DNA of 64,000 bases from a virus. Lineage: Duplodnaviria > Heunggongvirae > Uroviricota > Caudoviricetes. Below are positions 3,789-23,772 of the stretch, one piece after another. Location of the stretch: positions 1 to 64,000 of IMG/VR virus record IMGVR_UViG_2595698888_000001; one strand, given 5' to 3'. Made by a program: the position numbers and the translations under genes. Each line of letters opens with the position of its first letter. The stretch's first letter is position 1. Below the pieces are notes generated by a model. That model worked only from the letters and a program-made list of their open reading frames with translations, had not been told where the DNA came from and did no database searches.

Positions 3789-3857
3789 CCCACAGGGTGC
3801 GGAGATCTGCCTATTGATATTTAAATGAATTTTGGATACAATTCCGCACCCTGTGGG
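3789..3857. repeat. long inverted repeat (cccacagggtgcgga ... tccgcaccctgtggg) with about 40-nt AT-rich loop; member of 26-bp element family
   Basis: perfect 15-bp arms; same element recurs at 6618-6686 and 22899-22969 and as single copies elsewhere. Confidence 0.6.
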
Positions 3858-4246
3858 TCAAGGAGTTCCGCCTCCATGTAAGATATTATGCCAGTACTGC
3901 GATCATAATGCAAGTACTTTTTGTGATTTTCTTTAAAAAAGTTTCCCCTTCTATATACGTATAAAGGAAGCGTTTAGAGCGTGTCAGATCCTGGGGCTTA
4001 CAGTTTTGTACTTTATACTTTATAAAGCCGTGTAAAGCGTCCTATGCGTTCTATGTTTGCGTATGTGTATATAGAGAAGAAAAAGGCTGTTAGAAAGAAT
4101 TTTATAAAAACTTGTATAAAGTACTTGCAAGGTTTTTTCGGTGTGATAGTATTAACCACGTCGAACAGGACAACGCTCTTTAAAAACTTGCTGGTGAATA
4201 CTTAAACATGCCTCCAGGTACTTTGAAAAAAGAATCTGAGAGAATG

Positions 4247-4282
4247 AAAAAAGTACTTGACGGCAAGATTAGAAAGTGTAGA
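4247..4282 (+). promoter_or_regulatory. sigma70-like promoter (AAGTACTTGACG - spacer - TAGAAT) preceding an ORF-free GC-rich segment
   Basis: -35/-10 hexamers with 16-17 bp spacer and AGTACT immediately 5' of -35 as in other promoters of this window. Confidence 0.4.
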
Positions 4283-4491
4283 ATGTTCAATATCGAAAGG
4301 CGGCAAGGTTCGCCGGATGGTAGGAAACGGTGGCGGGGCGATTCAGTACTGCTACAGTGATAAGCGAAAAGAGCTATCACAGCGTTATAAAGGTTAACAT
4401 AACTGTTAACGTCCTATCTGCCGCCCGACGATGCTTTCTGTACTGTAAAAGGTACGAAAGAAAAAAGATTCAGAAAGTTATCAAAAAGTAC

Positions 4492-4520
4492 TTGACTGCC
4501 TGAATCGCACGATGTAAGAT
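4492..4520 (+). promoter_or_regulatory. promoter TTGACT-17-TAAGAT for gene 4583-5257
   Basis: aaaaagtacTTGACTgcctgaatcgcacgatgTAAGATg; RBS aaggtatataatcATG follows. Confidence 0.5.
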
Positions 4521-4582
4521 GTTAAGCAAGCCAGATGGCTAACCCAAAATTCAAAATTTAACTTTTAAGAAGGTATATAATC

Positions 4583-5257
4583 ATGACTACTACTAACACC
4601 ACTAAAGCCGCAAAAGTTACTCTGAACTCTATCGTGTTCGCTGCCGCCCCGGTTCTGCGTGAACTGAAAGAAGGTGAGTCTTACACCAAAACCGAAATGA
4701 AGCAGTTTGAAAAAGAACTGGCCGAACATGTTCGCACTACGTCGCTGGATCTGGCACGTTACATCGTGAACAAAACCGAAAACACCGACCTGATTTCCAA
4801 ACTGCTGGCGGCGACGGTGGAAGCGATTCCTTCTGTGGTTGATGAAGTGCTGAAAGCGAAACAGGAAGAAGAAGCCCGCAAAGCGGAAGAAAAACGCAAA
4901 GCGGAAGAAGAACGTCAGGCCCAGCTCCAGGCCGCCGCTGAAGAACTGGAGAAGAAAAAACAGGATATGCTTAAAGTTCTGACTGATAACGGCGTGGATC
5001 TGGAAGTCGCCAAAGCGATGGTAGCCGCTGGTGCGAAAAACCTGGCTCCGGCTCATGCGGTGAAAAACTCTTACGAACGTGTATCCTGCACTATTGAAGG
5101 CAATCAGTACGATGTTCCGGTGCGTGGCAACATGTCTCAGGCACTGAAAGACCTGGCAGCGAAATACGGTTTCGCCGATGACCGCGAAGGCTTTATCGAA
5201 AAATTCCGCGATGAACCTGCAACGGCGAACGCTGAAGAAAACACCGCCGAAGCGTAA
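4583..5257 (+). CDS. hypothetical Lys/Glu-rich coiled-coil protein with anomalous (about 50% GC, E. coli-like) codon usage
   Basis: 224-aa ORF; central KAEEKRKAEEERQAQLQAAAEELEKKKQ; ctg/cgt/ccg/gaa codon bias unlike rest of window; not recognised as a known family. Confidence 0.65.
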   Translation: MTTTNTTKAAKVTLNSIVFAAAPVLRELKEGESYTKTEMKQFEKELAEHVRTTSLDLARYIVNKTENTDLISKLLAATVEAIPSVVDEVLKAKQEEEARKAEEKRKAEEERQAQLQAAAEELEKKKQDMLKVLTDNGVDLEVAKAMVAAGAKNLAPAHAVKNSYERVSCTIEGNQYDVPVRGNMSQALKDLAAKYGFADDREGFIEKFRDEPATANAEENTAEA

Positions 5258-5277
5258 TACCAAAAGTAATACGGCAA

Positions 5278-5298
5278 GGGGGCTAGAAAGCCCCCTAA
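5278..5298 (+). terminator. stem-loop gggggctagaaagccccc after 4583 gene (weak T tract)
   Basis: 6-bp GC stem directly after stop codon. Confidence 0.35.
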
Positions 5299-5404
5299 GC
5301 CTTTCTAACAGTACTGTAATACATTTCCTCAAAAGTACTGTTAGAAACGCTTAGAATCAATCCTACAGCGTTTTACGATACATTTTTAATTGAGAGTAAA
5401 CGCT

Positions 5405-5674
5405 ATGGAACTAAAACCACTTTCTGAACTCCGCGATAAAAAAACCATTGTCGCCAGGACAATGATCCACACTTCCCCACGTCAAAAGGTTTTATCTGGC
5501 TATCTGGTTTTTGTGCTGGATGGTAAACTAATACAACGCCGGATCTATGATATGGCTTATAATAGTACTTTTAATAGTGCTATGTATATAGTTTACAAAG
5601 GCGTAAACTATGCCGTAGATCTTGCCTGTAAGACGATTAGCGGGGCTTTCAGTGTTCAAACGTTGAAAGTATAA
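5405..5674 (+). CDS. hypothetical protein (90 aa)
   Basis: ORF with RBS ttgagagtaaacgctATG; start moved to first ATG. Confidence 0.5.
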   Translation: MELKPLSELRDKKTIVARTMIHTSPRQKVLSGYLVFVLDGKLIQRRIYDMAYNSTFNSAMYIVYKGVNYAVDLACKTISGAFSVQTLKV

Positions 5675-5796
5675 GCCTACAATCAAAAGCCCTTAGAGAA
5701 CGTGCTAAGGGCTTTATATTTGATTTTAAAAAATCCTTGCAATAAACTTTCAAACGTGTAGAATTACTTATATCGAAAGAATGTGGAGTAAACAAG

Positions 5797-6189
5797 ATGG
5801 AAAGTAAAGCTAAGTTTGAACAATACAGATTAGTTTTGGATGTACTGATTCAAATGAAAGATTGTATTGACCGCGATGATACTTATACTACAGTACTGGA
5901 TAAGTCATTCAATCTTACCCGATCCCTGGGTATCTGCTGGCATGTATATGTTCACACTCCACCAGCGGAGATCACTGGTATCGGATCGGACTATCTTGAA
6001 CCTGCATTCATTGCGTTAGGGCTTGATCGTGAATATCCGGTTGAAAGCCAGGTTGATACTGATTCGCCGCGAATCCTGCACTTTTCACAGCGTAACCTGT
6101 ACGATCCTGATAACGAGTGCGGAAAGTTACGGATCAAGTTGGTTAATGATTTGATTCAGTACTTTGAAACAGAATTACAAAAGTCTTAA
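5797..6189 (+). CDS. hypothetical protein (130 aa)
   Basis: ORF with RBS ggagtaaacaagATG and upstream TTGCAA/TAGAAT promoter. Confidence 0.6.
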   Translation: MESKAKFEQYRLVLDVLIQMKDCIDRDDTYTTVLDKSFNLTRSLGICWHVYVHTPPAEITGIGSDYLEPAFIALGLDREYPVESQVDTDSPRILHFSQRNLYDPDNECGKLRIKLVNDLIQYFETELQKS

Positions 6190-6258
6190 AAAGTACTTGT
6201 ATATTAATTTAGAATCTGTATAATACGTAAGTATAGAGAAACAACAGAGATTAAGAAA

Positions 6259-6543
6259 ATGCAAATTACACTTAACGGATTTACTTTTGTTAAGAACGCA
6301 AATGGTACTGATAACATCCAATCAGTACTTAAAAACAAAGACAATAAAGCATTAGGCGGCATTGTCAAAGAAGGTAACAAGATGGCGAAGCTTGAACGTC
6401 TGAAACAATCGCCGGAAACGTTAGATTTCCTTTGTAAAGTACTGGAAGAAACAAATCAAGTTTATTCAGTACAGAAAGCGGCGAAACCACGTAATAAGTA
6501 CAAAGGTAAATTTAATCCCAACATTCATTCAGTTGGTGCATAA
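6259..6543 (+). CDS. hypothetical protein (94 aa)
   Basis: ORF; RBS agagattaagaaaATG; upstream ttgtat...tataat promoter. Confidence 0.55.
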   Translation: MQITLNGFTFVKNANGTDNIQSVLKNKDNKALGGIVKEGNKMAKLERLKQSPETLDFLCKVLEETNQVYSVQKAAKPRNKYKGKFNPNIHSVGA

Positions 6544-6554
6544 ATCTTTACAAA

Positions 6555-6595
6555 ACGGGGGTTGACATCAGCCCCCGAAAAATGCAATAATGTTT
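6555..6595 (+). promoter_or_regulatory. terminator-promoter hybrid: hairpin cgggggTTGACAtcagcccccg with -35 in loop, then tgcAATAAT
   Basis: near-identical copy at 23546-23580; followed by conserved leader caagccggaacaaaggcgtagccca. Confidence 0.5.
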
Positions 6596-6617
6596 ACAAG
6601 CCGGAACAAAGGCGTAG

Positions 6618-6686
6618 CCCATAGGATGCGGAGATCTATCTATTGTTTTTTATTTTAATTTTAGATAGATCTCCGCACCCTATGGG
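6618..6686. repeat. 25-bp inverted repeat cccataggatgcggagatctatcta ... tagatagatctccgcaccctatggg with 19-nt AT loop
   Basis: one mismatch between arms; element family member. Confidence 0.65.
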
Positions 6687-6883
6687 TTAGGACGTTTCGC
6701 CGTCTTGATAGTAATAATAGCAGTACTGAAAAGCCTTGTCAAGCAAAAAAATGGGGAACTTTCCTTGCTCCCCTGTAAATGTTTCAAAGGCATATATTAG
6801 ACTACTGCGAAGCGTTGTTAATCGCAGGTAGTACTATAACAGAACGTGGCAGAGATCGCAAATATATTTTGATGCTTAATATA

Positions 6884-6963
6884 CTTTTAAACGTGAAAAG
6901 TACTTGCAAAGAATGATTAAAAGAGTATACTTAACTTATCGAAACAAACGAGAGGATTTAAAA
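6884..6963 (+). repeat. promoter/5'UTR/RBS cassette copy 1 (atacttttaaacgtgaaaagtacTTGCAAagaat...TATACT...tatcgaaacaaacgagaggatttaaaaATG)
   Basis: near-identical cassettes at 9232-9318 and 14428-14512; RBS part also at 7271-7300. Confidence 0.6.
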
Positions 6964-7236
6964 ATGGCTAGTTACAGTGCGTCAATGATTGTTAAGGATT
7001 TAGCTGGAAAGCCGTGTTTAGCTTGCGGTTCCTTTGGTAACATTGCGATAGATGGTAGATTATCTATTTCCAGGGCGATAGAGATCGCGGAGGAAAGTTT
7101 TAAGAAAGAATCCAAATTTCAAAACAGCGAATACTTGGGATTTGTAATTGAGAAAACTTCTCGATTCGTTGAATATCGTAAACCGAGTATTATCGGTAAT
7201 AAAGAAGTAAAAACTTTTAAAGAACTTGAACGATAA
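6964..7236 (+). CDS. hypothetical protein (90 aa)
   Basis: ATG after conserved RBS gagaggatttaaaaATG; ORF-track start 6904 lies inside the promoter. Confidence 0.55.
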   Translation: MASYSASMIVKDLAGKPCLACGSFGNIAIDGRLSISRAIEIAEESFKKESKFQNSEYLGFVIEKTSRFVEYRKPSIIGNKEVKTFKELER

Positions 7237-7300
7237 TACTTGTAAAGTGGGTAATGGTTTAGTACTGTTACCCTATCGAAACGAACTTGAGGATTTAAAA

Positions 7301-7747
7301 ATGGGAACTCCAGCATGTATCGCAGTAATGAACGATAAGAAAGAAGTTACCTGGACTTATGTTAACTATGACGGGTATTTAAACGGCGTAGGCAGAATGT
7401 TGAACGAGTATTACAACGATCTGATAATGGCTAAAAAATTGATTTCGATGGGTGATATTTCAGTACTGAAAAAGACGATGGATTGCCCGGTCGGTCACTC
7501 ATTCGCTACACCTGCCCCGGATTGCACAGTATTCTATGAGCGTGATCGAGGTGAAGATAATGTAAAACCACGTCACGGCGATTATGCTATGTTCCTGCGT
7601 TGTAATAAGGGGACAATTAGTTATATCTACACGGATGGACAATGGCATATAGTACGAGAAACAAGTAAACGCGGGGCAATTTTAGACCGTCATAAATTGT
7701 TAGTACTTGGCGAAGTGTTATCCGGTTTATATGATTTTTCGCGTTAA
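7301..7747 (+). CDS. hypothetical protein (148 aa)
   Basis: ATG after duplicated RBS cgaaacgaacttgaggatttaaaaATG. Confidence 0.55.
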   Translation: MGTPACIAVMNDKKEVTWTYVNYDGYLNGVGRMLNEYYNDLIMAKKLISMGDISVLKKTMDCPVGHSFATPAPDCTVFYERDRGEDNVKPRHGDYAMFLRCNKGTISYIYTDGQWHIVRETSKRGAILDRHKLLVLGEVLSGLYDFSR

Positions 7748-7765
7748 TTAAATTGCATATAGTAC

Positions 7766-7793
7766 TTGCAAAATTCTGCGAGTACTATATAAT
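7766..7793 (+). promoter_or_regulatory. early promoter agtacTTGCAA-16-TATAAT
   Basis: tagtacTTGCAAaattctgcgagtacTATAAT. Confidence 0.55.
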
Positions 7794-7823
7794 TACTTAT
7801 ATCTTAAACGGGAGAACAAAGAA

Positions 7824-8279
7824 ATGAAAGCTAACGAATTTGAACAGAAAGTAAGAGAATCCTTTTTGAAGTACTTTCCAAACGGTCATATTCGTTTATC
7901 TAAACTTGCGTTAGGTGGCGGCTTACATATTGCTTGTGGCCTGATTGCAAACGTTAAAGAGATCACCGCCACTATTCGCGAAAATGATCCGTTAAACGTT
8001 TCTATCTTTATTCATGATAACTATGTTTTCAATGATTCAGAAACGGATCTTGATAATGTAGTACTTGAATTTGACAATTCGCATATATCGGTTATTCCTG
8101 ATAATCCGCATATGTACAGCCAATCGCACAAGATCGCCGCACGTAAAATTAACGCTGCACCAGAAAAAGCACTGCAAAACCTGGATAAGTATTTTAAACG
8201 TGTTAAAGATGTTGTATCCGAGCAAGCGGCATTAAATCGGATTATCAAACAAGATACAATTGATCCGAAATATCTGTAA
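7824..8279 (+). CDS. hypothetical protein (151 aa)
   Basis: ORF with RBS gggagaacaaagaaATG. Confidence 0.55.
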   Translation: MKANEFEQKVRESFLKYFPNGHIRLSKLALGGGLHIACGLIANVKEITATIRENDPLNVSIFIHDNYVFNDSETDLDNVVLEFDNSHISVIPDNPHMYSQSHKIAARKINAAPEKALQNLDKYFKRVKDVVSEQAALNRIIKQDTIDPKYL

Positions 8280-8297
8280 AGTTATTAATCAAAGTAC

Positions 8298-8326
8298 TTG
8301 CAAAATGAATGCGAGTACTTTATAAT
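8298..8326 (+). promoter_or_regulatory. early promoter TTGCAA-17-TATAAT
   Basis: aaagtacTTGCAAaatgaatgcgagtacttTATAAT. Confidence 0.55.
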
Positions 8327-8356
8327 TAACTTATATTAAGTAAGAGAGAAAACAAA

Positions 8357-8779
8357 ATGAAATTAGATGTAAGAGGTTATTCTGAAGGTGGCTACTGTTT
8401 CCTGTACGATGGTAAGCCGGTTTCCATTCATGAAGCAATGGTCGCGAACGGCGGGAAGTTTTCAAAGCGTACTACTAACGCCTTGAACCGTAGAAATCTG
8501 CCTAGTGTTGAATGGCTAAAAGTGTTTGAAAAAGATGTAGCCACGTTACATACTGGCTTAGATGCTCCTGGTGCCCGTAAAGTACTGAGGGATCATTATA
8601 ACATCGATGTACTTAAACGTGACTATTATCATTTGTCAAGTTCAGAAGTATACGATCTTAAAACTGTATACAAAATGTGCAAATATAAAGTAACAGTTAA
8701 AGAACCTGCACACTCTGAGATGTACTACTTTTTCCAGTACTTGTCAAGGAAAGATGTGCATCCACTCGAAAAGAATTAA
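8357..8779 (+). CDS. hypothetical protein (140 aa)
   Basis: ORF with RBS agagagaaaacaaaATG. Confidence 0.55.
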   Translation: MKLDVRGYSEGGYCFLYDGKPVSIHEAMVANGGKFSKRTTNALNRRNLPSVEWLKVFEKDVATLHTGLDAPGARKVLRDHYNIDVLKRDYYHLSSSEVYDLKTVYKMCKYKVTVKEPAHSEMYYFFQYLSRKDVHPLEKN

Positions 8780-8786
8780 TTAAAGA

Positions 8787-8821
8787 AAGGGGTTGACTTC
8801 GGTTAGCCCCTTCTGTATACT
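8787..8821 (+). promoter_or_regulatory. terminator-promoter hybrid: aaaggggTTGACTtcggttagcccctt hairpin, -10 TATACT 17 bp downstream
   Basis: stem ggggtt/agcccc enclosing -35; followed by conserved leader gtattcattggcagataaagccgcaagcccatagggtgcata. Confidence 0.55.
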
Positions 8822-9196
8822 GTATTCATTGGCAGATAAAGCCGCAAGCCCATAGGGTGCATAATTGTATCTATAATATTAAGAATAAAAAAAAGATAAA
8901 ATAATCCTTGCAATCAAACGATGAATAGATTAATATGTAGTTCTCGACACGCAATAACGCGATAACCTAAAAGAAGGAAAGCAGATATTCTATCAGGCTC
9001 ATATCCTGATAGCAGTACTAATAACCTGAGACACATAGCACACCGATAAGTCTATGTTAGGATGCATTAGCGAAAGCACATCACTGGATGAATGCATAGT
9101 ACTGGTAGAATATGCGGTATTATCTTTATAAGAGAATATATGAGATAAACTTAATGCGGCCTTAATGGGCGTGGCGTGTATCAAAAGCCACCGTTA

Positions 9197-9229
9197 AACG
9201 CTCCCTTAATGGGGGCGTTTTTCGTTTTG
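9197..9229 (+). terminator. rho-independent terminator closing the 8.8-9.2 kb ORF-free transcript
   Basis: aacgctcccttaatgggggcgtt + tttcgtttt. Confidence 0.5.
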
Positions 9230-9231
9230 GA

Positions 9232-9318
9232 TAATATACTTTTAAACGAGAAAAGTACTTGCAAAGAATGATAAAAGTAGTATACTTATCTATATCGAAA
9301 ACGAAAGAGGATTTAAAA
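9232..9318 (+). repeat. promoter/5'UTR/RBS cassette copy 2 (TTGCAA 9259-9264, TATACT 9281-9286)
   Basis: atacttttaaacgagaaaagtacttgcaaagaatgataaaagtagtatacttatctatatcgaaaacgaaagaggatttaaaaATG. Confidence 0.6.
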
Positions 9319-9675
9319 ATGGTAGATATGTTCTGGAGTAGTTCGTGCGGCAGAATTGAACTTGAGTTCAAAGATCCTGAGCAGGTATTCACTATGTTTC
9401 ATAGTGGCGATTGTGAGGATTCTGTTAAGGCACAGATTCCGTACTTCCTTCCTCAATTGCAGAACATTGATCGTTCGCGTATTATTTCAGTACTAAATGA
9501 ATATTCTGGTGATTGGACAATTGGGGAGTTATTGGAACTTACACAGGAAGATCTTTACATTAAACTGTTATGGATCGCTGCTGGTGATAAACACGACGAA
9601 ATCAATATGGATGAATTGTGTGAATGGCAGAATGATTTTTTGGCAGAACGTGAACGCGAAAAACACGGCGAATGA
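9319..9675 (+). CDS. hypothetical protein (118 aa)
   Basis: ATG after cassette RBS. Confidence 0.55.
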   Translation: MVDMFWSSSCGRIELEFKDPEQVFTMFHSGDCEDSVKAQIPYFLPQLQNIDRSRIISVLNEYSGDWTIGELLELTQEDLYIKLLWIAAGDKHDEINMDELCEWQNDFLAEREREKHGE

Positions 9676-9688
9676 TCATTAAAAGTAC

Positions 9689-9716
9689 TTGCAATAACAT
9701 GCGAGTACTTTATAAT
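9689..9716 (+). promoter_or_regulatory. early promoter TTGCAA-16-TATAAT
   Basis: aaaagtacTTGCAAtaacatgcgagtacttTATAAT. Confidence 0.55.
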
Positions 9717-9748
9717 GATTGTACTTATTAAGTGAGAGGAAAAACAAA

Positions 9749-10129: not shown

Positions 10130-10135
10130 ACAAAT

Positions 10136-10161: not shown

Positions 10162-10175
10162 AGTGAGATATTCAT

Positions 10176-17278: not shown

Positions 17279-17287
17279 TTCAAATAA

Positions 17288-17321: not shown

Positions 17322-17609
17322 TCTTTCATTGGCAGATAAGCCGTTAGCCCATTGGGTGCATAGTTGTATCCTTTTTAAGTACTTTCTACTTTGAAAATAT
17401 TATACAAAAACTTGTAATTTCTTCTTGCAGATTAATCTGAATTTGGTATTATATACACATCGAGACGGGGCAACGTCTTAGATAAACTAAGCGAGCGAGA
17501 AAGAAAATGCGGCGTAAATGAATTTATAAAAGGAGTTGACAGCGGTTGACTCCTTTAGTATAATCATCCCATTCAAACAAATGTAGTACTTTCTAAAAGG
17601 CATAATATC

Positions 17610-17837
17610 ATGAGAAACATCGTCGAAGTACTGTTTAACGCATCAAGAGAAGTTTCCGAAGAAGAACGCCAGGCTTCCGAAGTCATTAGCGATCTTTGCC
17701 AAAAGCATGAGCTTGTCTTACCTGAACAACTTATGGCTATGAATTACTTTTCAGGTATTGACTTCAATCTGATTGTATCAAAGGTTAGTACTCTTAACAC
17801 GCCGTTGATACCCGAAGCAATGTTTTATACACATTAA
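17610..17837 (+). CDS. hypothetical protein (75 aa)
   Basis: ORF. Confidence 0.5.
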   Translation: MRNIVEVLFNASREVSEEERQASEVISDLCQKHELVLPEQLMAMNYFSGIDFNLIVSKVSTLNTPLIPEAMFYTH

Positions 17838-17846
17838 TAAGTAATA

Positions 17847-17882
17847 AAAGGCTTGACACGTTCGAGCCTTTTTTGTTATACT
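17847..17882 (+). promoter_or_regulatory. terminator-promoter hybrid aaggcTTGACAcgttcgagccttttttgt + TATACT (near-duplicate of 17288 module incl. 45-nt leader)
   Basis: identical leader tacttctttcattggcagataagccgttagcccattgggtgcata. Confidence 0.55.
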
Positions 17883-17975
17883 TCTTTCATTGGCAGATAA
17901 GCCGTTAGCCCATTGGGTGCATAATAGTACTAGTACTATAAGAAAATAAAAATATAAATTCAAACGAAAAAAAAC

Positions 17976-18004
17976 TTGCATTCAAATAACAGTACTGGCA
18001 TAAT
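17976..18004 (+). promoter_or_regulatory. promoter TTGCAT-17-CATAAT with UP element ataaattcaaacgaaaaaaaa
   Basis: sequence. Confidence 0.45.
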
Positions 18005-18055
18005 ACTTACATGGATTAGGGAATGGCCTTAATCATTTTAAGCGAGAATACTATC

Positions 18056-18631
18056 ATGAAATTCGAAGAACTGAACGAAGAACAAAAAGCTAGAGCAATT
18101 GAAAAACATCGCGATATCAACGTTGACTATGACGAATGGTATGATTTTGTAAAAGAAGAACATCATTCTAAACTGGAAGAAGTTGGTTTTTCTGGTGTAG
18201 AGTCTGCATATTCTGGATTCTGGTCACAAGGTGACGGTGCAAGTTTTACTGCTGATAGCCTGGATATTGAGAAGTTTTTACGTGCAACTAAACGCTGGAC
18301 TTATTATCGTCCGTTGCATGAAATGATCCGTATTAATGAAATATGGGCTAAAGTAGTTCGTACTACTCACCGCTACTGTCACGAAAACACAACTCAAGCA
18401 GAGTTACACGGTGAACATTACCTTAATTTAACATCGCGTCAAGAATCTTTGTATGAAGAACTTGAAAAGGAAATTGATGAATATATCACACGTGCAGGTC
18501 AAGAGTACTATCGCGATCTGAATACTGCATATGATGATTTAACTTCTGACGAACAAGTTAAACTATCAATCATTGCAAATGATATGGACTTTGAAGAAGA
18601 CCCACGTGAATCAGGCATAACTTATCTTTGA
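18056..18631 (+). CDS. hypothetical acidic protein (191 aa)
   Basis: RBS gcgagaatactatcATG. Confidence 0.55.
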   Translation: MKFEELNEEQKARAIEKHRDINVDYDEWYDFVKEEHHSKLEEVGFSGVESAYSGFWSQGDGASFTADSLDIEKFLRATKRWTYYRPLHEMIRINEIWAKVVRTTHRYCHENTTQAELHGEHYLNLTSRQESLYEELEKEIDEYITRAGQEYYRDLNTAYDDLTSDEQVKLSIIANDMDFEEDPRESGITYL

Positions 18632-18639
18632 CAAGTACT

Positions 18640-18678
18640 CAAAGGGGATTGACTAGTTCAATCCCTTTGTTGTATAAT
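18640..18678 (+). promoter_or_regulatory. terminator-promoter hybrid aaaggggaTTGACTagttcaatcccttt + TATAAT
   Basis: sequence. Confidence 0.5.
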
Positions 18679-18879
18679 AACAATACGGAGACAATAGAAT
18701 GGTTGAGTATACAACTATCAATCCGGTATATGAAGAAGGGAAAGCAATGAACAAAATTGCTTTATGTTTTATACTTTTTATAGTACTTTTATTATGAGAC
18801 TACTTAAACAGCATAGCGAAGTATCTTTGTATAGTAGTATGGGATTGTTTTTAGTATCAAAAGGCCGGACAAAAATAAC

Positions 18880-18908
18880 TTGCAAAAGTGGTGTAACTGC
18901 ATTATACT
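18880..18908 (+). promoter_or_regulatory. promoter TTGCAA-17-TATACT
   Basis: aaataacTTGCAAaagtggtgtaactgcatTATACTtctttcatc. Confidence 0.5.
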
Positions 18909-18945
18909 TCTTTCATCAACTAACCAATATTAAGTGAGTACTGAA

Positions 18946-19278
18946 ATGAGAAAACCTAACGTAGAAATTCTTTGTGATTCACATCACGGAATTTATATTC
19001 CGTCTATCATGATTCAACGTCTGGTAGATAATGGCTGGCGTAACATTCCTGATGATGCAGTTGAAATTCTCAAAGATCCTAATCATGAATGTTATTGGGA
19101 AACGTGGCAAGAAGTACTGGACAATGCTGAATGGCATGATGCAAGTACTAGCCAGGTTTTCAAACTGCATCATGACGGCGATCTGTTTGCAGTATGCCCT
19201 GAAAGTTGTACGCCACAAGAGTATCATCATATCTATGGTGAATATCCTGAATGGTACAACCAGGAAGAAGAAGTATGA
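18946..19278 (+). CDS. hypothetical His/Cys/Trp-rich protein (110 aa)
   Basis: RBS taagtgagtactgaaATG. Confidence 0.55.
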   Translation: MRKPNVEILCDSHHGIYIPSIMIQRLVDNGWRNIPDDAVEILKDPNHECYWETWQEVLDNAEWHDASTSQVFKLHHDGDLFAVCPESCTPQEYHHIYGEYPEWYNQEEEV

Positions 19279-19361
19279 TCCAGTATTGGTGGCTTGAGCC
19301 AGTACTCTATCTGATTGTAGCACTCACCGCATTATATGTAGTTGTTACAATCTTTGGTTAA
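19275..19361 (+). CDS. tiny hydrophobic peptide (28 aa), ATGA overlap with previous gene
   Basis: MIQYWWLEPVLYLIVALTALYVVVTIFG. Confidence 0.3.
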   Translation: MIQYWWLEPVLYLIVALTALYVVVTIFG

Positions 19362-19374
19362 ATTCAAAAAGTAC

Positions 19375-19403
19375 TTGACTCCGGTCAGGTACTTTGCTAT
19401 TAT
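19375..19403 (+). promoter_or_regulatory. promoter TTGACT-17-TATTAT
   Basis: aaaagtacTTGACTccggtcaggtactttgcTATTAT. Confidence 0.45.
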
Positions 19404-19565
19404 GTATACATAGCAAGAACAATGCTTTAGCCCATAGGGTGCAGCAGTGTAGCTATAGTATAAGGATGTAACTGAAACAAATATAAAGTTAAATGAAAAA
19501 TCCCCTTGCTTTCTTTCTTTCGTGTGGTATACTTTAATTATTGAAACAGAGCGGAGTAGAAAGAA

Positions 19566-19808
19566 ATGGAAAAGTCTGGAATTGAATTTAAAGTCCGTAA
19601 GTGGTCTGAACATGGTGCTCGCCGCCCATTCGACGTGGTAGCACTGGATCACGACAACAACAAACAGCACTACCAGCCAGGCTGCACTTTCAGTACTGAA
19701 GATGGGGCAAAGCGTCATCAGGCAATACTGGAAAAACGTATTAAAGATGTACCAAACAGTATTAAGTTTATTCGTGACTGCTGGCCTGTAGACGGCGGTA
19801 TTGAATAA
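19566..19808 (+). CDS. hypothetical protein (80 aa)
   Basis: RBS agcggagtagaaagaaATG. Confidence 0.55.
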   Translation: MEKSGIEFKVRKWSEHGARRPFDVVALDHDNNKQHYQPGCTFSTEDGAKRHQAILEKRIKDVPNSIKFIRDCWPVDGGIE

Positions 19809-19841
19809 AGATTTAAATAAAGATTCAAATGAAAAAAGTAC

Positions 19842-19870
19842 TAGACAAAAACGATTTAGTACTTTATAAT
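19842..19870 (+). promoter_or_regulatory. promoter TAGACA-17-TATAAT
   Basis: aaaaagtacTAGACAaaaacgatttagtacttTATAAT. Confidence 0.5.
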
Positions 19871-19899
19871 TTAAAAACTAAATGAGTGGAGACACGAAA

Positions 19900-20787
19900 A
19901 TGTTAAAATTATACAAAGGTATTAACGGCCTGGCACTGAAATCAAATCGCCCTCTTAACAGAGCGGAACTTCTGGAAGTAGTCCCTTCTATCTTTGCAAT
20001 TGAAGGGCATTCTTCACGTAGCTCCCGTTTCGCACCAGTTGCAACGATTGATGTACTGGATCGCCTGGCACAAGAAAACTACTTTCCGATGTTTGCTATT
20101 CAGTCGCAAACACGCGATGCATCAAAACGCGATTATACTAAACATATGATCCGTTTGCGTCAGCCGGGTAAGCAGGAAGGTGAAGCAAACGAAATCATCC
20201 TGGTAAACGCCAATGATGGCACAAGTGCATATCAGTTGATGGCAGGTCAATTCCGTTTTGTATGTTCTAACGGTTTAGTTATGGGTGATATGTCTCATAA
20301 CACGAAGATCTACCACAAAGGCACTGACATTATGGACGATGTTATTGAAGGTGTTTACACGGTGGTTAAAGACTTTGATGAAATCGAACGCTACAAAAAG
20401 GAAATGAAGCAGATTCAACTTAGTACTGAACAACGCGATTCCTTTGCAATCGCCGCCTATATCATGAAAGAAGGTTTACCGGAAAACGGCGATTGGGCGA
20501 ACGCAGTATATCAGCCACGAGCATTACTTTCTACGAAAGACCTGAACACGCTGGATCGTTATGATAACAGTCTGTACAGTACTTTTAACACTGTACAGCA
20601 ACATATGATGGCTGGTGGGCAACGTGGCTATAATCCACATACTGGCCGCCGTCGCTCAAGTCGTGAAGTAACGAACATCGACAAAAACATTGATCTGAAT
20701 AGTACGTTGTGGCGTACTGCGATGAAAATGGTAGACCAATATAGTCTACTGAAAAACGCAGAACCTGAAGAATTAATTCAGTTCTAA
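19900..20787 (+). CDS. DUF932 family protein (YfjQ-like phage/ICE protein)
   Basis: motifs HSSRSSRFAPVATIDVLDRL, YTKHMIRLR, EIILVNANDGTSAYQLMAGQFRFVCSNGLV, HKGTDIMDDVIEG match the recalled YfjQ/DUF932 consensus. Confidence 0.7.
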   Translation: MLKLYKGINGLALKSNRPLNRAELLEVVPSIFAIEGHSSRSSRFAPVATIDVLDRLAQENYFPMFAIQSQTRDASKRDYTKHMIRLRQPGKQEGEANEIILVNANDGTSAYQLMAGQFRFVCSNGLVMGDMSHNTKIYHKGTDIMDDVIEGVYTVVKDFDEIERYKKEMKQIQLSTEQRDSFAIAAYIMKEGLPENGDWANAVYQPRALLSTKDLNTLDRYDNSLYSTFNTVQQHMMAGGQRGYNPHTGRRRSSREVTNIDKNIDLNSTLWRTAMKMVDQYSLLKNAEPEELIQF

Positions 20788-20795
20788 GTCAAATT

Positions 20796-20830
20796 GGGGG
20801 TTGACAACGATTAGCCCCCTAAGCTATACT
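20796..20830 (+). promoter_or_regulatory. terminator-promoter hybrid gggggTTGACAacgattagccccct + TATACT
   Basis: sequence. Confidence 0.5.
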
Positions 20831-20863
20831 TGCATTTGACAACGTAAACGGAGTAACGGAACC

Positions 20864-21202
20864 ATGAGCATGAATTTTTTCATCATGACCAGTACAACGC
20901 AAGACGGTCACACCGAGTACGGCAAAACTGAATACGTTATCGTAGGTCAGGATAAAGCGGGCCGCCGTTTCCGCCTTGATACTTCTGTATTATACAATGA
21001 CGATAAAACAGACCGTGAATGCCGCGATATTCAAAATCGTCGTATTATGCGTATGCTGCAAAGTATCGCGTATGGTCAGAAGATCGATATGCAATTCTGG
21101 AAAGAAATCGAACCTGCATACGAATCTGAGGCGTTTTATAAGTTAGATACTAAGCAACGCATGAAGATCGAACAGGAACATGTCGATATGTATGGCGTTT
21201 AA
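20864..21202 (+). CDS. hypothetical protein (112 aa), paralog of 21787-22134
   Basis: shares KTEYxIV...G.R.RL and W.EI.P.Y.S motifs with downstream ORF. Confidence 0.55.
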   Translation: MSMNFFIMTSTTQDGHTEYGKTEYVIVGQDKAGRRFRLDTSVLYNDDKTDRECRDIQNRRIMRMLQSIAYGQKIDMQFWKEIEPAYESEAFYKLDTKQRMKIEQEHVDMYGV

Positions 21203-21229
21203 CTTATAGTACTGCGTAACGTAATACAA

Positions 21230-21258
21230 GGGCAACCATTCAACGGTTGCCCTTTTTT
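21230..21258 (+). terminator. rho-independent terminator
   Basis: gggcaaccattcaacggttgccc + ttttttaa. Confidence 0.6.
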
Positions 21259-21465
21259 AATTCATTTTTTTTTAAATTAACACTTGACAAATCAAATTTA
21301 ATAATAATTTGTACAAACCTATACACGAGTACTGTACAATTTTTTTATATTTTTCAGATAATTATGTGATGCAAGTTTTGTAAATGATGCTAAGGAACGA
21401 TTGACAGGCATAGGATAATTCCGATACAATAGCCCTAAGTTAACAAGCGAAGCGAGTATAATAAT

Positions 21466-21687
21466 ATGAGTAGTTCAGTTAATAGCAGTGAATTGGAAGC
21501 ATTGAAAATCCGTTGGTATCAATTAGCCATTGAAGGCAAGCCAGTGATCGGCGAAGATGAAAAGTTGTTCAACTCCCTCCCCCGCTACGTTCAAGAGGAA
21601 CTAAAGAAGGCATATCTTTTCGGCGTGAACGATGAATGCGAAACCTGGATGATCCCACAACAAGTAACGGCAAAAGTCAAAAACTAA
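21466..21687 (+). CDS. hypothetical protein (73 aa), paralog of 22592-22768
   Basis: ELEALKIRWYQLAIEG...KLFNSLPRYVQEELKKAY vs LAELRTKWYNLGKEG...VLFNSLDPWQKRELHNAY. Confidence 0.55.
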   Translation: MSSSVNSSELEALKIRWYQLAIEGKPVIGEDEKLFNSLPRYVQEELKKAYLFGVNDECETWMIPQQVTAKVKN

Positions 21688-21720
21688 TCCAGTACTATCA
21701 CGCATATAAACATACTCCAG

Positions 21721-21754
21721 GGGGTTGACTTTGGTCAGCCCTTTTTGCTATACT
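21721..21754 (+). promoter_or_regulatory. terminator-promoter hybrid ggggTTGACTttggtcagccctttttgc + TATACT
   Basis: sequence. Confidence 0.5.
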
Positions 21755-21786
21755 TCTATTACACCAAAGCAAGAGAGTACAAAACC

Positions 21787-22134
21787 ATGTTAGACGTTTA
21801 TATCAGAAGTGATTTAGTATCAGATGGCGTTGATGAATGCGGTACTCCAAAAGAAAAGACAGAGTACTACATCGTAGCAGAATCTGAAACAGGTCAGCGT
21901 ATCAGATTGGAAAATGCTTCTATCGTGAACCGCGATTTTTCCGATGAACAATGTGTCGCGTACTTAGAACCAACAGTTAATAAAATCAAAAATCATTTGG
22001 CTGGTGGCGGTAAACTTAATCCAGATCTATGGTACGAAATCGATCCATGCTACGGGTCACAACGTTACATGGATTTAGATAGTTCTGGCTTCTTCTACCA
22101 CCGCGAGAAACGAGAAGATACCTATCGCAATTAA
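21787..22134 (+). CDS. hypothetical protein (115 aa), paralog of 20864-21202
   Basis: RBS aagcaagagagtacaaaaccATG. Confidence 0.5.
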   Translation: MLDVYIRSDLVSDGVDECGTPKEKTEYYIVAESETGQRIRLENASIVNRDFSDEQCVAYLEPTVNKIKNHLAGGGKLNPDLWYEIDPCYGSQRYMDLDSSGFFYHREKREDTYRN

Positions 22135-22151
22135 GTAAACACCAATTCAAG

Positions 22152-22320
22152 AAAATTTCGAGTACTTGTCAAATCAAATACAAGTATTCGAAAATTTAGT
22201 TTAGTGTCGAGTACTTGTATAAATTTTCGCGTATGCACCAGCGTATACATATATGCACATATAATGCGTAATATGTACTTGCATACGCCTACACATACAT
22301 GTATACTATCATTGTCAACT
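22152..22320. repeat. complex repeat region: inverted repeat aaatttcgagtacttgt/acaagtattcgaaaattt plus alternating purine-pyrimidine gcgtatgcac/catatatgcacatata/catacatgtatac tracts
   Basis: seen directly; no ORF. Confidence 0.4.
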
Positions 22321-22336
22321 ACAGAGGATCTATATC

Positions 22337-22531
22337 ATGAATGCACAAATTAGACTCTTAGCGAATCAAGTACTGAACAAACGTTACTTGGGCATTGAAG
22401 AAGCAATGGAGCGTATCATCGGCAAATACACTGAACAAAACGCTGATGTACACGCCGCCGTATTCAATGAGATTCAAGATATTCTGAATCCTCATGGTAC
22501 TGGTGAAGATGAAGTTTATTGCGAAAGTTAA
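22337..22531 (+). CDS. hypothetical protein (64 aa)
   Basis: RBS acagaggatctatatcATG. Confidence 0.5.
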   Translation: MNAQIRLLANQVLNKRYLGIEEAMERIIGKYTEQNADVHAAVFNEIQDILNPHGTGEDEVYCES

Positions 22532-22591
22532 TTTGACAACGCGATGTAAGTACTGATATACTTACTACACATTAATCGAGAGGGTAACAAC

Positions 22592-22768
22592 ATGGTACAG
22601 GTAGACTTAGCAGAACTCAGAACTAAATGGTACAACCTGGGGAAAGAAGGTACTGAAATCTCAGGTGATGATGCAGTACTGTTTAACTCCCTCGATCCGT
22701 GGCAAAAGCGGGAACTCCACAATGCCTACGTTGAAGGAACTACGGAAGCCCTTGCAACCGTAGCATAA
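22592..22768 (+). CDS. hypothetical protein (58 aa), paralog of 21466-21687
   Basis: RBS atcgagagggtaacaacATG; not in ORF track (<60 aa). Confidence 0.5.
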   Translation: MVQVDLAELRTKWYNLGKEGTEISGDDAVLFNSLDPWQKRELHNAYVEGTTEALATVA

Positions 22769-22898
22769 CCCTAACAGGCTATCGTATCATAAAAGTGTTG
22801 GCAAAGTCCAGCACTTTTTTTCGTTTTTAAGCAAATAAATTCCTTGACCTTCCCTGCGATATTTGAGAGAATACCCACAAGCCAGAACAAAGGCGTAG

Positions 22899-22969
22899 CC
22901 CACAGGGTGCATAGGCACGTCCAAAATTCAGTACTCAAATTTTAGATAGATCTCCACACCCTGTGGGTC
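22899..22969. repeat. degenerate copy of the long inverted-repeat element (cccacagggtgcatag ... tagatagatctccacaccctgtggg)
   Basis: right arm near-identical to 6662-6686. Confidence 0.55.
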
Positions 22970-23167
22970 AGACCGTTACACCGGTTTATGTACTTATTAT
23001 ACATCAACCACGGATCAATGCAATACCCTGGAGAAAATAAAATTATAAATTCAAACATAATATTCGCTTGAATTCTTTGTTCAGTTTGATAATATACCTA
23101 GACCAAAACAAACAACGGCAAGACTATACCGCCTAAATCGTCAGGCCGGATTATACCCAAAACCCTG

Positions 23168-23533
23168 ATGGAGTATCAAAAAATGAGATTAAGTGAGCTT
23201 CGCGGTATCCTGACAGTACTGGAATATCAGGCACATCAAAAGGGAAACATTGATCCGCTGGTGGAGTTATTCAGCGTTGAATTAGATGGCGATGTTTTCC
23301 TTACTGTAGATATTAATGCTATCCAGGCAGATCCAGCAGGTCAGTTAACCCCAGGTGGATCTATTCACCTGCCATTAAAAGAAATTACTACTCGTGGATT
23401 CGTGGTAGTGTATGGTGATAAAGGCCGTGAGGATTGTATTGTGATTCAGGCCACAAATAAGAAAGAAGCTGAAAGATTGTTCTTGAAACATTTCAGTACT
23501 TATGAACTGAAAACAATCAACGAAGAAATCTAA
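23168..23533 (+). CDS. hypothetical protein (121 aa)
   Basis: ORF. Confidence 0.55.
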   Translation: MEYQKMRLSELRGILTVLEYQAHQKGNIDPLVELFSVELDGDVFLTVDINAIQADPAGQLTPGGSIHLPLKEITTRGFVVVYGDKGREDCIVIQATNKKEAERLFLKHFSTYELKTINEEI

Positions 23534-23545
23534 ATCTTTACAAAT

Positions 23546-23580
23546 CGGGGGTTGACATTAGCCCCCGAAAAATGCAATAA
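23546..23580 (+). promoter_or_regulatory. terminator-promoter hybrid cgggggTTGACAttagcccccg + tgcAATAAT (duplicate of 6555-6595)
   Basis: followed by gacccatagggtgcggaa element. Confidence 0.5.
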
Positions 23581-23772
23581 TATGATCAAGCCAGAAAATT
23601 GGCGTGACCCATAGGGTGCGGAATTGTACCCATAGCTTTTGTAATATAAATTCAAATGAAAAAAGTCCTTGCAAAGCTCATTCGTGTGTATTACTATTAC
23701 CTCATCGAAACAAGAAACGGCAAGACGAATCAGCCGAGAACGTCATGCCCCACTACGCCCAAAGGATTTATC

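Follow-up and report, generated by a model that had tools for sequence, protein, structure and literature searches.

Organization of the Module Family in Phage GAP32

The window analyzed here, a stretch of 64,000 nucleotides, corresponds to bases 1–64000 of Cronobacter phage vB_CsaM_GAP32 (GAP32), a jumbo phage with a genome of 358,663 bp. It contains a family of 13 autonomous transcription modules, each combining a promoter with a structured RNA start, and not a mobile inverted repeat. The first-pass annotation had proposed a dispersed 26-bp element; the dispersal is real (13 copies vs. 0 expected) and its positions were correct within a few bases, but the conserved length is 12 nt, not 26, the truly conserved part being the 12-mer CCCAYAGGGTGC (the core), with the next 13 nt variable. 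Searches with the 26-mer, allowing up to three mismatches, returned 6 matches (0.00 expected) and a 16-mer search returned 13 (0.07 expected), while a regular expression for the core and a covariance model agree on exactly 13 copies each, nine on the + strand and four on the − strand. As had been claimed, all copies are intergenic (13/13, GenBank annotation of GAP32). The − strand units have model scores as good as those of the + strand units and keep every feature. The units are listed below, with P1 denoting the 5′-terminal hairpin of the module.

Unit 1, 3733–3816, + strand: + half of convergent pair 1; promoter TTGACA-18-TACTAT at 3733–3762; module 3767–3816, P1 GCCA/UGGC, core 3789–3800
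Unit 2, 3830–3913, − strand: − half of pair 1; promoter TTGCAT-17-CATAAT at 3913–3885, TGg before the −10; module 3879–3830, P1 GGAG/CUCC, core 3857–3846
Unit 3, 6562–6645, + strand: + half of pair 2; promoter with −35 within hairpin GGGGGTTGACATCAGCCCCC (6562–6591); module 6596–6645, P1 GCC/GGC, core variant CCCATAGGATGC at 6618–6629
Unit 4, 6659–6742, − strand: − half of pair 2; promoter TTGACA-17-TATTAT at 6742–6714; module 6708–6659, P1 GACG/CGUC, core 6686–6675
Unit 5, 8793–8876, + strand: single; hairpin-embedded promoter 8793–8821; module 8826–8876, P1 UGGC/GCCG, core 8849–8860
Unit 6, 10657–10734, + strand: single; promoter 10657–10685; module 10690–10734, short leader AUUGAAACAAAUUAG with a weak A-U hairpin only, core 10707–10718
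Unit 7, 12857–12940, − strand: lone − strand unit; promoter TTGACA-17-TATTAT at 12940–12912; module 12907–12857, P1 AGCA/UGCU, core 12884–12873
Unit 8, 17292–17375, + strand: single; terminator/promoter hairpin 17286–17321; module 17326–17375, core 17348–17359, GGGUGC...GUAUCC hairpin followed by UUUUU
Unit 9, 17853–17936, + strand: single; module 17887–17936, core 17909–17920
Unit 10, 19375–19458, + strand: single; promoter inside the AAAGTACTTGAC...GGTACTTT hairpin 19368–19403; module 19408–19458, P1 AGCA/UGCU, core 19431–19442
Unit 11, 22844–22926, + strand: + half of pair 3; promoter TTGACC-17-GAGAAT at 22844–22872; module 22877–22926, core 22899–22910
Unit 12, 22940–23023, − strand: − half of pair 3; promoter 23023–22996; module 22989–22940, P1 ACCG/CGGU, core CCCACAGGGTGT at 22967–22956
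Unit 13, 23552–23635, + strand: single; hairpin-embedded promoter 23552–23581; module 23586–23635, core 23608–23619

The module copies span positions 3767–23635 exclusively, a block of ~20 kb, and the other 294 kb of the GAP32 genome yielded no covariance-model match at E ≤ 1. This block corresponds to the direct terminal repeat of related phages; in the sister phage CBB the repeat measures 22,456 bp and is collinear with GAP32 from ~2.8 to 24.8 kb. The modules are restricted to the immediate-early terminal-repeat block. Early transcription of the terminal repeat has also been described for the related jumbo phage PA5oct, where two abundant non-coding RNAs are encoded in it (PMC7318152). The module region of GAP32 is dense in terminator-like sites (33 vs. 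12.5 expected), and nearly every gene in it has its own promoter.

Promoters and Orientation

All 13 copies have their own strong sigma70-type promoter upstream on the same strand, with the −10 ending 4–6 nt before the module, in agreement with the earlier proposal that they closely follow promoters and would be copied into RNA. Similarly, when the copies from relatives are included (88 overall), 73 of 88 pass a strict promoter test that is passed by 3.7% of random positions, and the distance from the end of the −10 to a conserved A is 7 nt in 54 cases. Measured from the predicted start, the element occupies ~+14 to +34 in 13/13 window copies and in 73/88 overall by the strict criteria. Both the start sites and the 3′ ends of the modules are predicted from sequence.

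A composite terminator/promoter hairpin forms the beginning of seven of the nine + strand units, and a good second promoter precedes the next gene in five of the nine, with a weaker one in three more. Of the 54 single units, 21 are oriented against the gene array, as is one member of each pair, and these copies therefore face no annotated gene; unit 7, for example, points towards the terminator of gene 022 and away from any annotated gene. The − strand arms, each with its own − strand promoter, are not passive mirror images, a point that the first-pass annotation had missed together with the covarying 5′ hairpin, the confinement to the early terminal repeat and the conservation across several genera. 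A consistent terminator was not found 3′ of the modules, a terminator-like site occurring within ~230 nt in 14 of 88 copies, and for this reason a discrete small RNA is a candidate product only.

RNA Structure and Conservation of the Module

The predicted transcript starts at a conserved CA, and within ~2 nt of it lies P1, a hairpin of 3–5 bp with a purine/A-rich loop of 4–9 nt (mostly 6–8), in which the sequence is free and the pairing is kept. A linker of 3–4 nt leads to an invariant mini-hairpin, R-CCC-AYA-GGG-U plus GC, followed by a 13-nt tail in which a YRYCY stretch can form an alternative helix, P2, with GGGUG. A string caagccRGAAMAAAGGCGTAGCC, previously described as preceding the element in general, does lie upstream of four of the 13 copies (3770, 6599, 22880, 23589) but not of the remaining nine, most of which have an equivalent small hairpin of different sequence, the copy at 10690 being a weak A-U version.

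The pairing in P1 is supported by two-sided changes at 4/4 pairs (153 cells; GC, CG, AU, and UA types), and P1 positions are paired in 92% of cases vs. 31–49% when slid. Of 66 distinct units, 44 have a hairpin of 4 bp or more, compared with 12.5 ± 2.9 and never more than 22 in 1000 shuffles, a test that was not fitted to the covariance model, and RNAalifold independently predicts both P1 and the CCC/GGG hairpin. The CCC/GGG stem is kept despite changes in loop length between 3 and 4 nt (UAUA, UUUA, UCAA, UAGA) and through one CCU/AGG double change. Of the 66 units, 57 are compatible with P2 when wobble pairs are allowed, and none is with the register shifted. A convincing P1 is missing in a few copies.

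The relatives that carry the module infect Pectobacterium, Erwinia, Serratia, E. coli, and Yersinia. An invariant core is shared by GAP32, CBB, Erwinia phage Hallingskeid, E. coli phages UB and EJP2, Serratia phage BF, Yersinia phage fHe-Yen9-04, and several ~350-kb contigs from uncultivated phages; the genera concerned share only ~25–30% genome identity. Between GAP32 and CBB, module conservation (0.92) is only slightly better than that of the flanks (0.83–0.88). Rfam contains no match for the module and we found no published description of it in the literature; the family is apparently undescribed so far.

Convergent Pairs

Three long inverted-repeat pairs had been reported; three pairs do exist, but long arms are found in pair 2 alone (6597–6642/6662–6707; 46 nt at 80%, of which 26 nt are nearly perfect). 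The arms of the pair at 3789 share 15 nt and those of the pair at 22899 just 11 of 12 core bases, so that pair arms are no more alike than any two copies. Each pair consists of two modules firing head-on from start sites ~109 bp apart, and each transcript therefore also carries the complement of the other core. The expectation of long RNA hairpins holds for the three pairs, which would fold at −37 to −57 kcal/mol (z scores −4 to −10). The predicted fold stability of single modules is unexceptional (z scores −0.2 to −2). Among the 88 copies from GAP32 and relatives there are 17 pairs, leaving 54 single units against 34 paired ones; the pair offset is 63 nt in 11 of the 17 and is kept across genera.

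Interpretation and Alternative Explanations

Our preferred reading, to which we give about an even chance, is that the module acts at the RNA level as the structured 5′ end of immediate-early transcripts made by the host polymerase, probably providing a short non-coding RNA or a docking site. From the anatomy established above we infer a mechanism in which the host polymerase would make module RNA within the first few minutes after infection, P1, at the very 5′ end, would protect the transcript against 5′-end-dependent decay, and the invariant mini-hairpin would serve as docking site for a putative trans-acting factor of phage or host origin. The product is probably the RNA itself, because many units face no gene and gene-facing ones usually precede the gene's own promoter; this RNA would be short, non-coding, early and multi-copy, and would serve as a tag or decoy and not as a leader for gene expression. 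The earlier suggestions of a small RNA, a processing site or a site bound by a protein still point in the right general direction. A Pfam search of 20 proteins from the region at curated cut-offs returned Band_7 and DUF932 alone, and no candidate module-binding protein was found.

Alternatively, the module may control elongation in cis, much like lambda nut, HK022 put or ops/RfaH: P1 and the 12-mer, as RNA or as a non-template DNA hairpin, would pause host RNA polymerase near the promoter, allowing factor loading or direct modification of the polymerase and altered handling of the many terminators of the region. The fixed position at ~+14 to +34, the order of hairpin and 12-mer, which resembles boxB/boxA-type sites, and the terminator density all agree with such a role, and a non-template hairpin beside a Y-G pause motif could arise from CCC-AYA-GGG and the TG that follows it. 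We nevertheless consider it unlikely. Read-through is unneeded where almost all genes have promoters of their own and a second promoter usually follows the module, many modules are directed away from genes, matches to boxA, lambda boxB and ops are absent beside every unit, and the A at loop position 6 that a −10-like pause element requires is not conserved (ACC, AUU or ACG loops in 14 of 88 copies).

Quite improbable, in our view, is a site for RNA processing or insulation, at which RNase III would cut the pair duplexes (12–27 bp per pair transcript, with small hairpins on either side) and neighboring gene modules would be insulated by head-on transcription; complementary transcripts could also anneal, and single copies would be half-sites or stabilizing hairpins. 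T7 and SP82 have conserved RNase III hairpins in their early regions, and the stable pair folds and recurrent 63-nt offset fit this explanation. However, the 54 single copies have the full set of conserved features, the promoter of every arm is left unexplained, and arm complementarity past the 12-nt core is not conserved, which argues that the long duplex is not the selected feature.

The core is invariant and thus offers no covariation, so that it is equally readable as DNA, and the 12-mer with its palindrome CCC-N3-GGG could be an operator at which a phage or host protein blocks or tunes the immediate-early promoters, P1 being an unrelated stabilizer. An invariant primary sequence between variable flanks, a location just past the start, which would be typical of a roadblock operator, and the restriction to one temporal promoter class are in keeping with this, but a palindromic operator does not need a constant orientation to the promoter. 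Moreover, the variation of the loop with the stem kept, including the CCU/AGG double change, is easier to reconcile with pairing than with a rigid duplex site, and tail changes all keep G-U or G-C pairing with GGGUG, a strand-specific property; we regard the operator as very unlikely.

Equally remote is a by-product of promoter-cassette recombination or a selfish miniature inverted-repeat element (MITE), the latter proposed in the first-pass annotation. Copies would then spread by recombination, as with the promoter-early stem-loops of T4-type phages, or by transposition, and what is transcribed would be functionless in itself. Composite hairpins at most + strand starts, the 97% identity of units 8 and 9 over 64 nt around gene 034, and a 620-bp segment (gene 045 plus unit 13) present in GAP32, absent from CBB and bounded by repeated promoter sequence all speak for it. 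However, across genera this distant a neutral passenger would keep neither an unchanged 12-mer nor a covarying hairpin, transposase-type terminal repeats are lacking, direct inspection of the arm ends revealed no target-site duplications, every arm forms a promoter-plus-RNA unit in its own right, single units outnumber paired ones, and random insertion would not yield the constant promoter orientation and distance.

Comparison With Known Systems

The lambda nut (boxA plus boxB) and HK022 put sites are promoter-proximal nascent-RNA elements that likewise combine small hairpins with a conserved stretch, and their RNAs act on the polymerase that made them. The GAP32 module has no sequence match to boxA or boxB, its loops are mostly 6–8 nt and not a GNRA-like pentaloop, and its layout of one promoter per gene with backward-facing copies gives antitermination no need. 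In contrast to lambda, GAP32 is a lytic jumbo phage for which we know of no N-like protein. The RNase III hairpins of T7 and SP82/SPO1 are also conserved, intergenic and early, the SPO1/SP82 early region is a terminal repeat as well, and the duplex is long enough for RNase III in two of the three GAP32 pairs; the T7/SP82 sites, however, lie inside polycistronic mRNAs without promoters of their own, whereas most GAP32-type copies are single and without a long duplex. Bacterial MITEs such as Correia and ERIC/IRU share short intergenic inverted repeats, some with promoters, and RNA hairpins, but in GAP32 duplications of the target are missing, the arms are independent with unrelated outer parts, promoter spacing is strict and single arms are the majority. 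Stabilizer hairpins of the ompA 5′ UTR type similarly place a small hairpin within ~2 nt of the predicted 5′ end, but stabilizers do not need conserved sequence, and the invariant 12-mer and gene-less copies of GAP32 are left unexplained.

The PA5oct RNAs are likewise non-coding and derive from the early-transcribed terminal repeat, but they are two in number and 236–451 nt long, are likened here by description and not by sequence, and are presented with no conserved motif noted in the accessible part of the report (PMC7318152). The promoter-early stem-loops (PeSLs) of T4-type phages (Arbiol 2010, PMC2839356; Comeau 2014, PMC4122927) are also repeated intergenic cassettes that join a stem-loop or terminator to a sigma70-type early promoter, cluster in plastic early regions rich in small unknown genes, and occur at the edges of insertions/deletions that distinguish close relatives. 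Most + strand GAP32 units have the same composite as their upstream half, with the −35 even inside the hairpin. A PeSL, as described (PMC4122927), ends in the Shine-Dalgarno and start codon of the next gene without a conserved transcribed element, whereas convergent pairs are common in GAP32, some copies are directed away from genes, and the module is defined by its conserved structured RNA start.

Copies and conserved core of the element

The window corresponds to bases 1-64000 of Cronobacter phage vB_CsaM_GAP32 (NC_019401, 358,663 bp, genus Mimasvirus), to which its bases 3000-9000 are 100% identical at matching coordinates. The first-pass annotation described a dispersed 26-bp element in it. 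Copies of this element lie far above chance in the window (six matches to the 26-mer at ≤3 mismatches against 0.00 expected, and 13 matches to a 16-mer against 0.07 expected), but only a 12-mer, CCCAYAGGGTGC, is conserved, the next 13 nt being variable. A regular expression for this 12-nt core and a covariance model concur on 13 copies, and all of these (13/13) are placed between genes in the GenBank annotation, as had been claimed.

Core copies in the window, from the regular expression and the covariance model
3789, plus strand, core start (pair 1)
6618, plus strand, core start (pair 2)
8849, plus strand, core start
10707, plus strand, core start
17348, plus strand, core start
17909, plus strand, core start
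19431, plus strand, core start
22899, plus strand, core start (pair 3)
23608, plus strand, core start
3846-3857, minus strand, core (pair 1)
6675-6686, minus strand, core (pair 2)
12873-12884, minus strand, core
22956-22967, minus strand, core (pair 3)

Three long inverted-repeat pairs had also been reported; all three exist, but long arms are found in one only. Pair 1 has perfect arms of 15 nt, pair 2 arms of 46 nt (80%) and pair 3 arms of 11/12 nt, so that the two arms of one pair resemble each other no more than any two copies do. A "conserved string" upstream of the element is present at just four copies and does not hold as a general feature.

Promoter coupling and convergent pairs

Each of the 13 copies has its own sigma70-type promoter before it, in its own orientation, which bears out the earlier observation that copies lie just downstream of a promoter and extends to the minus-strand arms of the pairs and to the lone minus-strand copy. 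In 13/13 window units, a unit being one promoter with its structured RNA start, 4-6 nt separate the end of the -10 hexamer from the module. With a promoter on every arm, the "inverted-repeat pairs" are thus sets of two convergent promoter-plus-element units. Among 88 copies drawn from 15 sources (GAP32 and its relatives), 73 satisfy strict promoter criteria, whereas the rate at random positions is 3.7%; the spacing from the end of the -10 to a conserved A is 7 nt in 54 of these 73. The 15 copies that fail comprise, by eye, units with a TTGCAA/TTGCAT-type -35 and a TG-extended -10, as well as hairpin-less units in which the model start is offset. Backward-facing and convergent copies are common: the 88 copies include 17 convergent pairs, 11 of which, in several genera, share a 63-nt offset.

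The palindrome AGTACT is also abundant, with 290 occurrences in the window (21 expected) and 1011 in the genome (121 expected). It is densest at 1-25000, is the top hexamer at 3-25 kb, adjoins the -35 (AAAGTACTTGCAA) and -10 (CAGTACTGgcATAAT) boxes of early promoters, and forms hairpins where its copies occur in twos.

RNA structure of the module

Promoter geometry places the predicted transcript start at a conserved CA, 1-2 nt 5' of a hairpin (P1) that precedes the core. P1 stems take at least 13 different sequences across copies, for example GCCA/UGGC, UGGC/GCCG, AGCA/UGCU, GACG/CGUC, GGAG/CUCC, ACCG/CGGU, UGAG/CUCA and AGUC/GACU. A covariance model (R1) was built from an ungapped 16-sequence seed, and its 88 hits constitute alignment A3. 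The covariation check proposed for the hairpin gave both-sided changes at all four P1 pairs (153 cells), and pairing stands at 92%, against 31-49% with the partner columns slid. Because A3 was fitted to the model, P1 was tested a second time on units found by the core alone: a hairpin of ≥4 bp occupies the right place in 44 of 66 distinct units, against 12.5 ± 2.9 of 66 in shuffles (maximum 22 in 1000). The loops are mostly 6-8 nt (GAGAAA, GCGAAA, AGAUAA, AGAACAA; range 4-9). A tertiary pairing of a P1 loop (AGAUA) with the tail (UAUCU) was rejected, being confined, by eye, to one subfamily.

RNAalifold, unaided, returns P1 together with a mini-hairpin in the core, R-CCC-AYA-GGG-U. Little covariation is possible in the CCC/GGG stem because it is invariant; it is kept where the loop differs in length (UAUA, from the Yersinia phage; UUUA; UCAA; UAGA), a single CCU/AGG double change was seen, and the closing pair is G-U in some copies and A-U in others. 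A candidate alternative helix (P2), mutually exclusive with the mini-hairpin, would pair GGGUG of the core with a YRYCY stretch of the tail. All five P2 pairs are possible in 57/66 units and in none with the register shifted, and two of its pairs are unpaired in 0/87 sequences; its backing consists of one-sided changes only, with wobble compatibility kept. As for fold stability, the pairs are very stable (-37 to -57 kcal/mol), but the single units are unremarkable (z -0.2 to -2).

A second conserved leader, AUCGAAACAA...CGGCAAGACGAAnCAGCCGAnAACGUC, lies upstream of genes 045 and 046 (23100-23182 and 23700-23772) and at 21040-21110 of Pectobacterium phage CBB (locus L002). It contains two interleaved 4-bp helices, CGGC/GCCG and GACG/CGUC, and may form a pseudoknot.

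Distribution among Rak2-like jumbo phages

The units are confined to the early terminal-repeat block. All 13 GAP32 units lie within 3.8-23.6 kb, and across the rest of the genome, searched as six pieces, the covariance model gave 0 matches at E≤1 and the core regular expression gave no match with a promoter. CBB, the closest relative of GAP32 over bases 3000-9000 (88% identity), has a direct terminal repeat of 22,456 bp, backed by read depth and pulsed-field gels; the genes of this repeat run collinear with the stretch of GAP32 at ~2.8-24.8 kb, and CBB has 12 units, all within 986-20,930. Terminal repeats in relatives measure ~20-21 kb (PMC13070987), and in phage PA5oct early transcription of the terminal repeat is described, with two abundant non-coding RNAs within it (PMC7318152).

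The motif search in related phages that had been proposed recovered units in Erwinia phage Hallingskeid and E. coli phages UB and EJP2. Yersinia phage fHe-Yen9-04 has nine units in its first 12.2 kb, and more were found in a contig of 357,154 bp, in IMG/VR contigs of 345,809 and 348,532 bp and in others of ~350 kb; chance 15-mer matches in unrelated contigs reach 18-20 bits only. The 12-mer is invariant across these genera. Host origin or mimicry was rejected, as a search of 5,426 complete E. coli genomes gave no match to the element.

Two further features of the region deserve mention. A degenerate tandem array at 3440-3586 (period 16/32; GATGGATAGA three times and CTGGATGGCTA) lies within a ~1-kb gene-poor, AGTACT-rich stretch, whose sole gene is the 45-aa GAP32_003 and which sits at the predicted left edge of the terminal repeat; the array might serve packaging, end recognition or an origin-type function. 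On the plus strand, the Chi sequence of E. coli, GCTGGTGG, is strongly over-represented (14 genomic copies where 1.4 are expected). Of these copies, 7 fall inside the terminal-repeat block, and in E. coli and Erwinia relatives Chi lies directly 3' of several units. Chi could shield the incoming DNA end from RecBCD or promote repeat-repeat recombination.

Chi (GCTGGTGG) in the window
9806, plus strand
13954, plus strand
15750, plus strand
17117, plus strand
20611, plus strand
22000, plus strand
23257, plus strand
39525, plus strand
42088, plus strand

Gene context and cassette shuffling

Seven of the nine plus-strand units begin with a composite terminator/promoter hairpin that holds the -35 box (for example GGGGTTGAC...AGCCCC and AAAAGGTTGAC...GGCCTTTT); this promoter-overlapping stem-loop is absent at the pair arms at 3767 and 22877 and at the minus-strand units. 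Hairpins of this kind, with -35 TTGAC inside a G+C stem-loop and the T-run/-10 next to it, have a compact design like that of the promoter-early stem-loops (PeSLs) of T4-type phages, and also occur without the RNA unit.

Composite terminator/promoter hairpins in the window
6557-6591
8789-8821
10653-10685
17286-17321
17532-17564
17846-17882
19368-19403
20797-20830
21721-21754
23547-23581

From unit to next gene the distance is 100-450 nt, usually with a second promoter between, which is good in 5/9 plus-strand units and weaker in three more. The four minus-strand units have no annotated gene ahead and are directed at the terminator of the previous gene. No consistent terminator lies 3' of the units: a terminator-like site follows only 14/88, and a discrete small RNA with its own terminator was rejected on this count. 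At 8826-9220, the promoter of the fifth unit (core at 8849) is followed by ~370 nt without an annotated gene, up to a strong terminator at 9196-9220; CBB has extra small genes at the matching position.

A 620-bp block of GAP32 (23082-23701), comprising gene 045 and one unit, is absent in CBB and has its boundaries in repeated promoter sequence; eleven other units occupy orthologous sites in the two phages, and gene 034 is flanked by two units that are 97% identical. Given the indel block and the near-identical units, the cassettes appear to share PeSL-type modular shuffling (PMC4122927).

Possible functions of the module

The reading that we favor, at about even confidence, is an RNA module with a protective P1 and a docking mini-hairpin, and with a short RNA as probable product. 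The module would act as RNA at the extreme 5' end of immediate-early transcripts, P1 serving as a protective 5' hairpin and the invariant mini-hairpin as docking site for a putative factor. As there is no gene for many of the copies to serve, the product is probably the short RNA itself. More tentatively, and in our judgment with a distinctly lower chance of being right, the units may represent an unrecognised multigene family of trans-acting immediate-early small RNAs in Rak2-like jumbo phages. There would be 9-13 such genes per terminal repeat, hence double per packaged genome, each driven by a strong host-type promoter of its own, and every RNA would present the invariant CCC-AYA-GGG-UGC mini-hairpin; these RNAs might sequester a host RNA-binding or defence protein, as decoy or sponge, or, alternatively, might bind host RNA polymerase itself, like put RNA.

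Elongation control of the nut, put or ops type is unlikely, as no boxA, boxB or ops match lies beside any unit. RNase III processing or insulation appears slightly less probable again, since the long duplex is not conserved. An RNase III substrate needs ~20 bp or more of mostly continuous RNA duplex; pairs 1 and 2 would offer enough (16+ and 27 bp), pair 3 is marginal (12 bp), and the seven single units have no such duplex. We give little weight to a DNA operator and equally little to a passive recombination cassette or MITE. Against the mobile-element reading of the first-pass annotation, there is no target-site duplication, the bases flanking the pair arms being different (CGTC/CAAG, CGTA/TAGG, CGTA/CAGA), and the inverted repeats are internal (the cores), not terminal; a passive PeSL-type cassette is disfavored in that PeSLs have no transcribed element.

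Several narrower candidates were rejected. Over the 64 kb, no Rfam 15 family reached its gathering threshold, which argues against a known RNA family; at E≤5 the only matches were generic microRNA precursors at the long hairpins, with scores of 21-36 bits where the thresholds are 60-107. An N4-style DNA-hairpin promoter for a virion RNA polymerase does not suit an element tied to sigma70 promoters; the giant virion protein GAP32_230 (3341 aa) has no Pfam or PDB sequence match. A sigma70-dependent pause at the -10-like TAGGGT would require an A at loop position 6, which is not conserved. Judged against the consensus sequences, a CsrA site or a CRISPR-repeat mimic seems unlikely: the core lacks GGA, and stem and loop sizes are unlike those of type I-E/I-F repeats. 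A partner protein encoded nearby was also rejected, Pfam on 20 proteins of the region yielding only Band_7 and DUF932 above curated cut-offs. Elsewhere in the genome, GAP32_176 (105937-107451 of GAP32; 41937-43451 of the sequence piece L094), annotated as an RNA-binding protein (DUF2828), lies near RNA ligase, CCA-adding enzyme, Thg1 and other RNA-repair genes and is a possible candidate partner for phage RNAs.

Significance for early infection

Jumbo phages of the Rak2/GAP32 group depend on host RNA polymerase, and their ~20-kb terminal repeats are packed with early genes of unknown function; to our knowledge, almost nothing is known of how the first phase of infection is controlled in this group. 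That 12 nt stay unchanged in phages infecting Cronobacter, Pectobacterium, Erwinia, Serratia, Yersinia and E. coli strongly suggests a specific molecular partner, to which the fusion of the core to a promoter and a covarying hairpin likewise points. A short RNA bait and the covariance model offer a handle for finding this partner, and the units can serve as markers of immediate-early promoters in new genomes and as aids to placing terminal repeats in assemblies that collapsed them, including that of GAP32. Should the RNAs work in trans, host take-over would include an RNA-based mechanism as well.

Comparison with known systems

Unlike lambda nut sites, the units adjoin no boxA consensus (CGCTCTTA / GCTCTTTAACAA), and while boxB is a hairpin with a GNRA-like pentaloop bound by N, most P1 loops have 6-8 nt; nothing like lambda boxB matches at the units with ≤3 mismatches, and no N-like protein came to light, Pfam on 20 proteins of the region being uninformative. 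With the ops consensus of the RfaH system (GGCGGTAGnnTG, non-template) the core shares only TAG-GTG, and no ops match at ≤2 mismatches coincides with any unit. In 5'-terminal stabilisers the hairpin lies within ~2-4 nt of the 5' end, compared with 1-2 nt from the predicted start to P1 here. The literature searched in full text, including that on GAP32/CBB promoters and Rak2-like transcriptomes, holds no description of the motif.

The units resemble PeSLs in that a sigma70-like early promoter lies in the cassette (13/13 window units). PeSLs, however, end in the Shine-Dalgarno sequence and start codon of the gene that follows, which the GAP32 units do not, and have no conserved transcribed element, which the GAP32 units have. 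Repeated promoter/terminator regulatory cassettes in phage early regions are already known; in GAP32 they are extended by a conserved structured RNA start.
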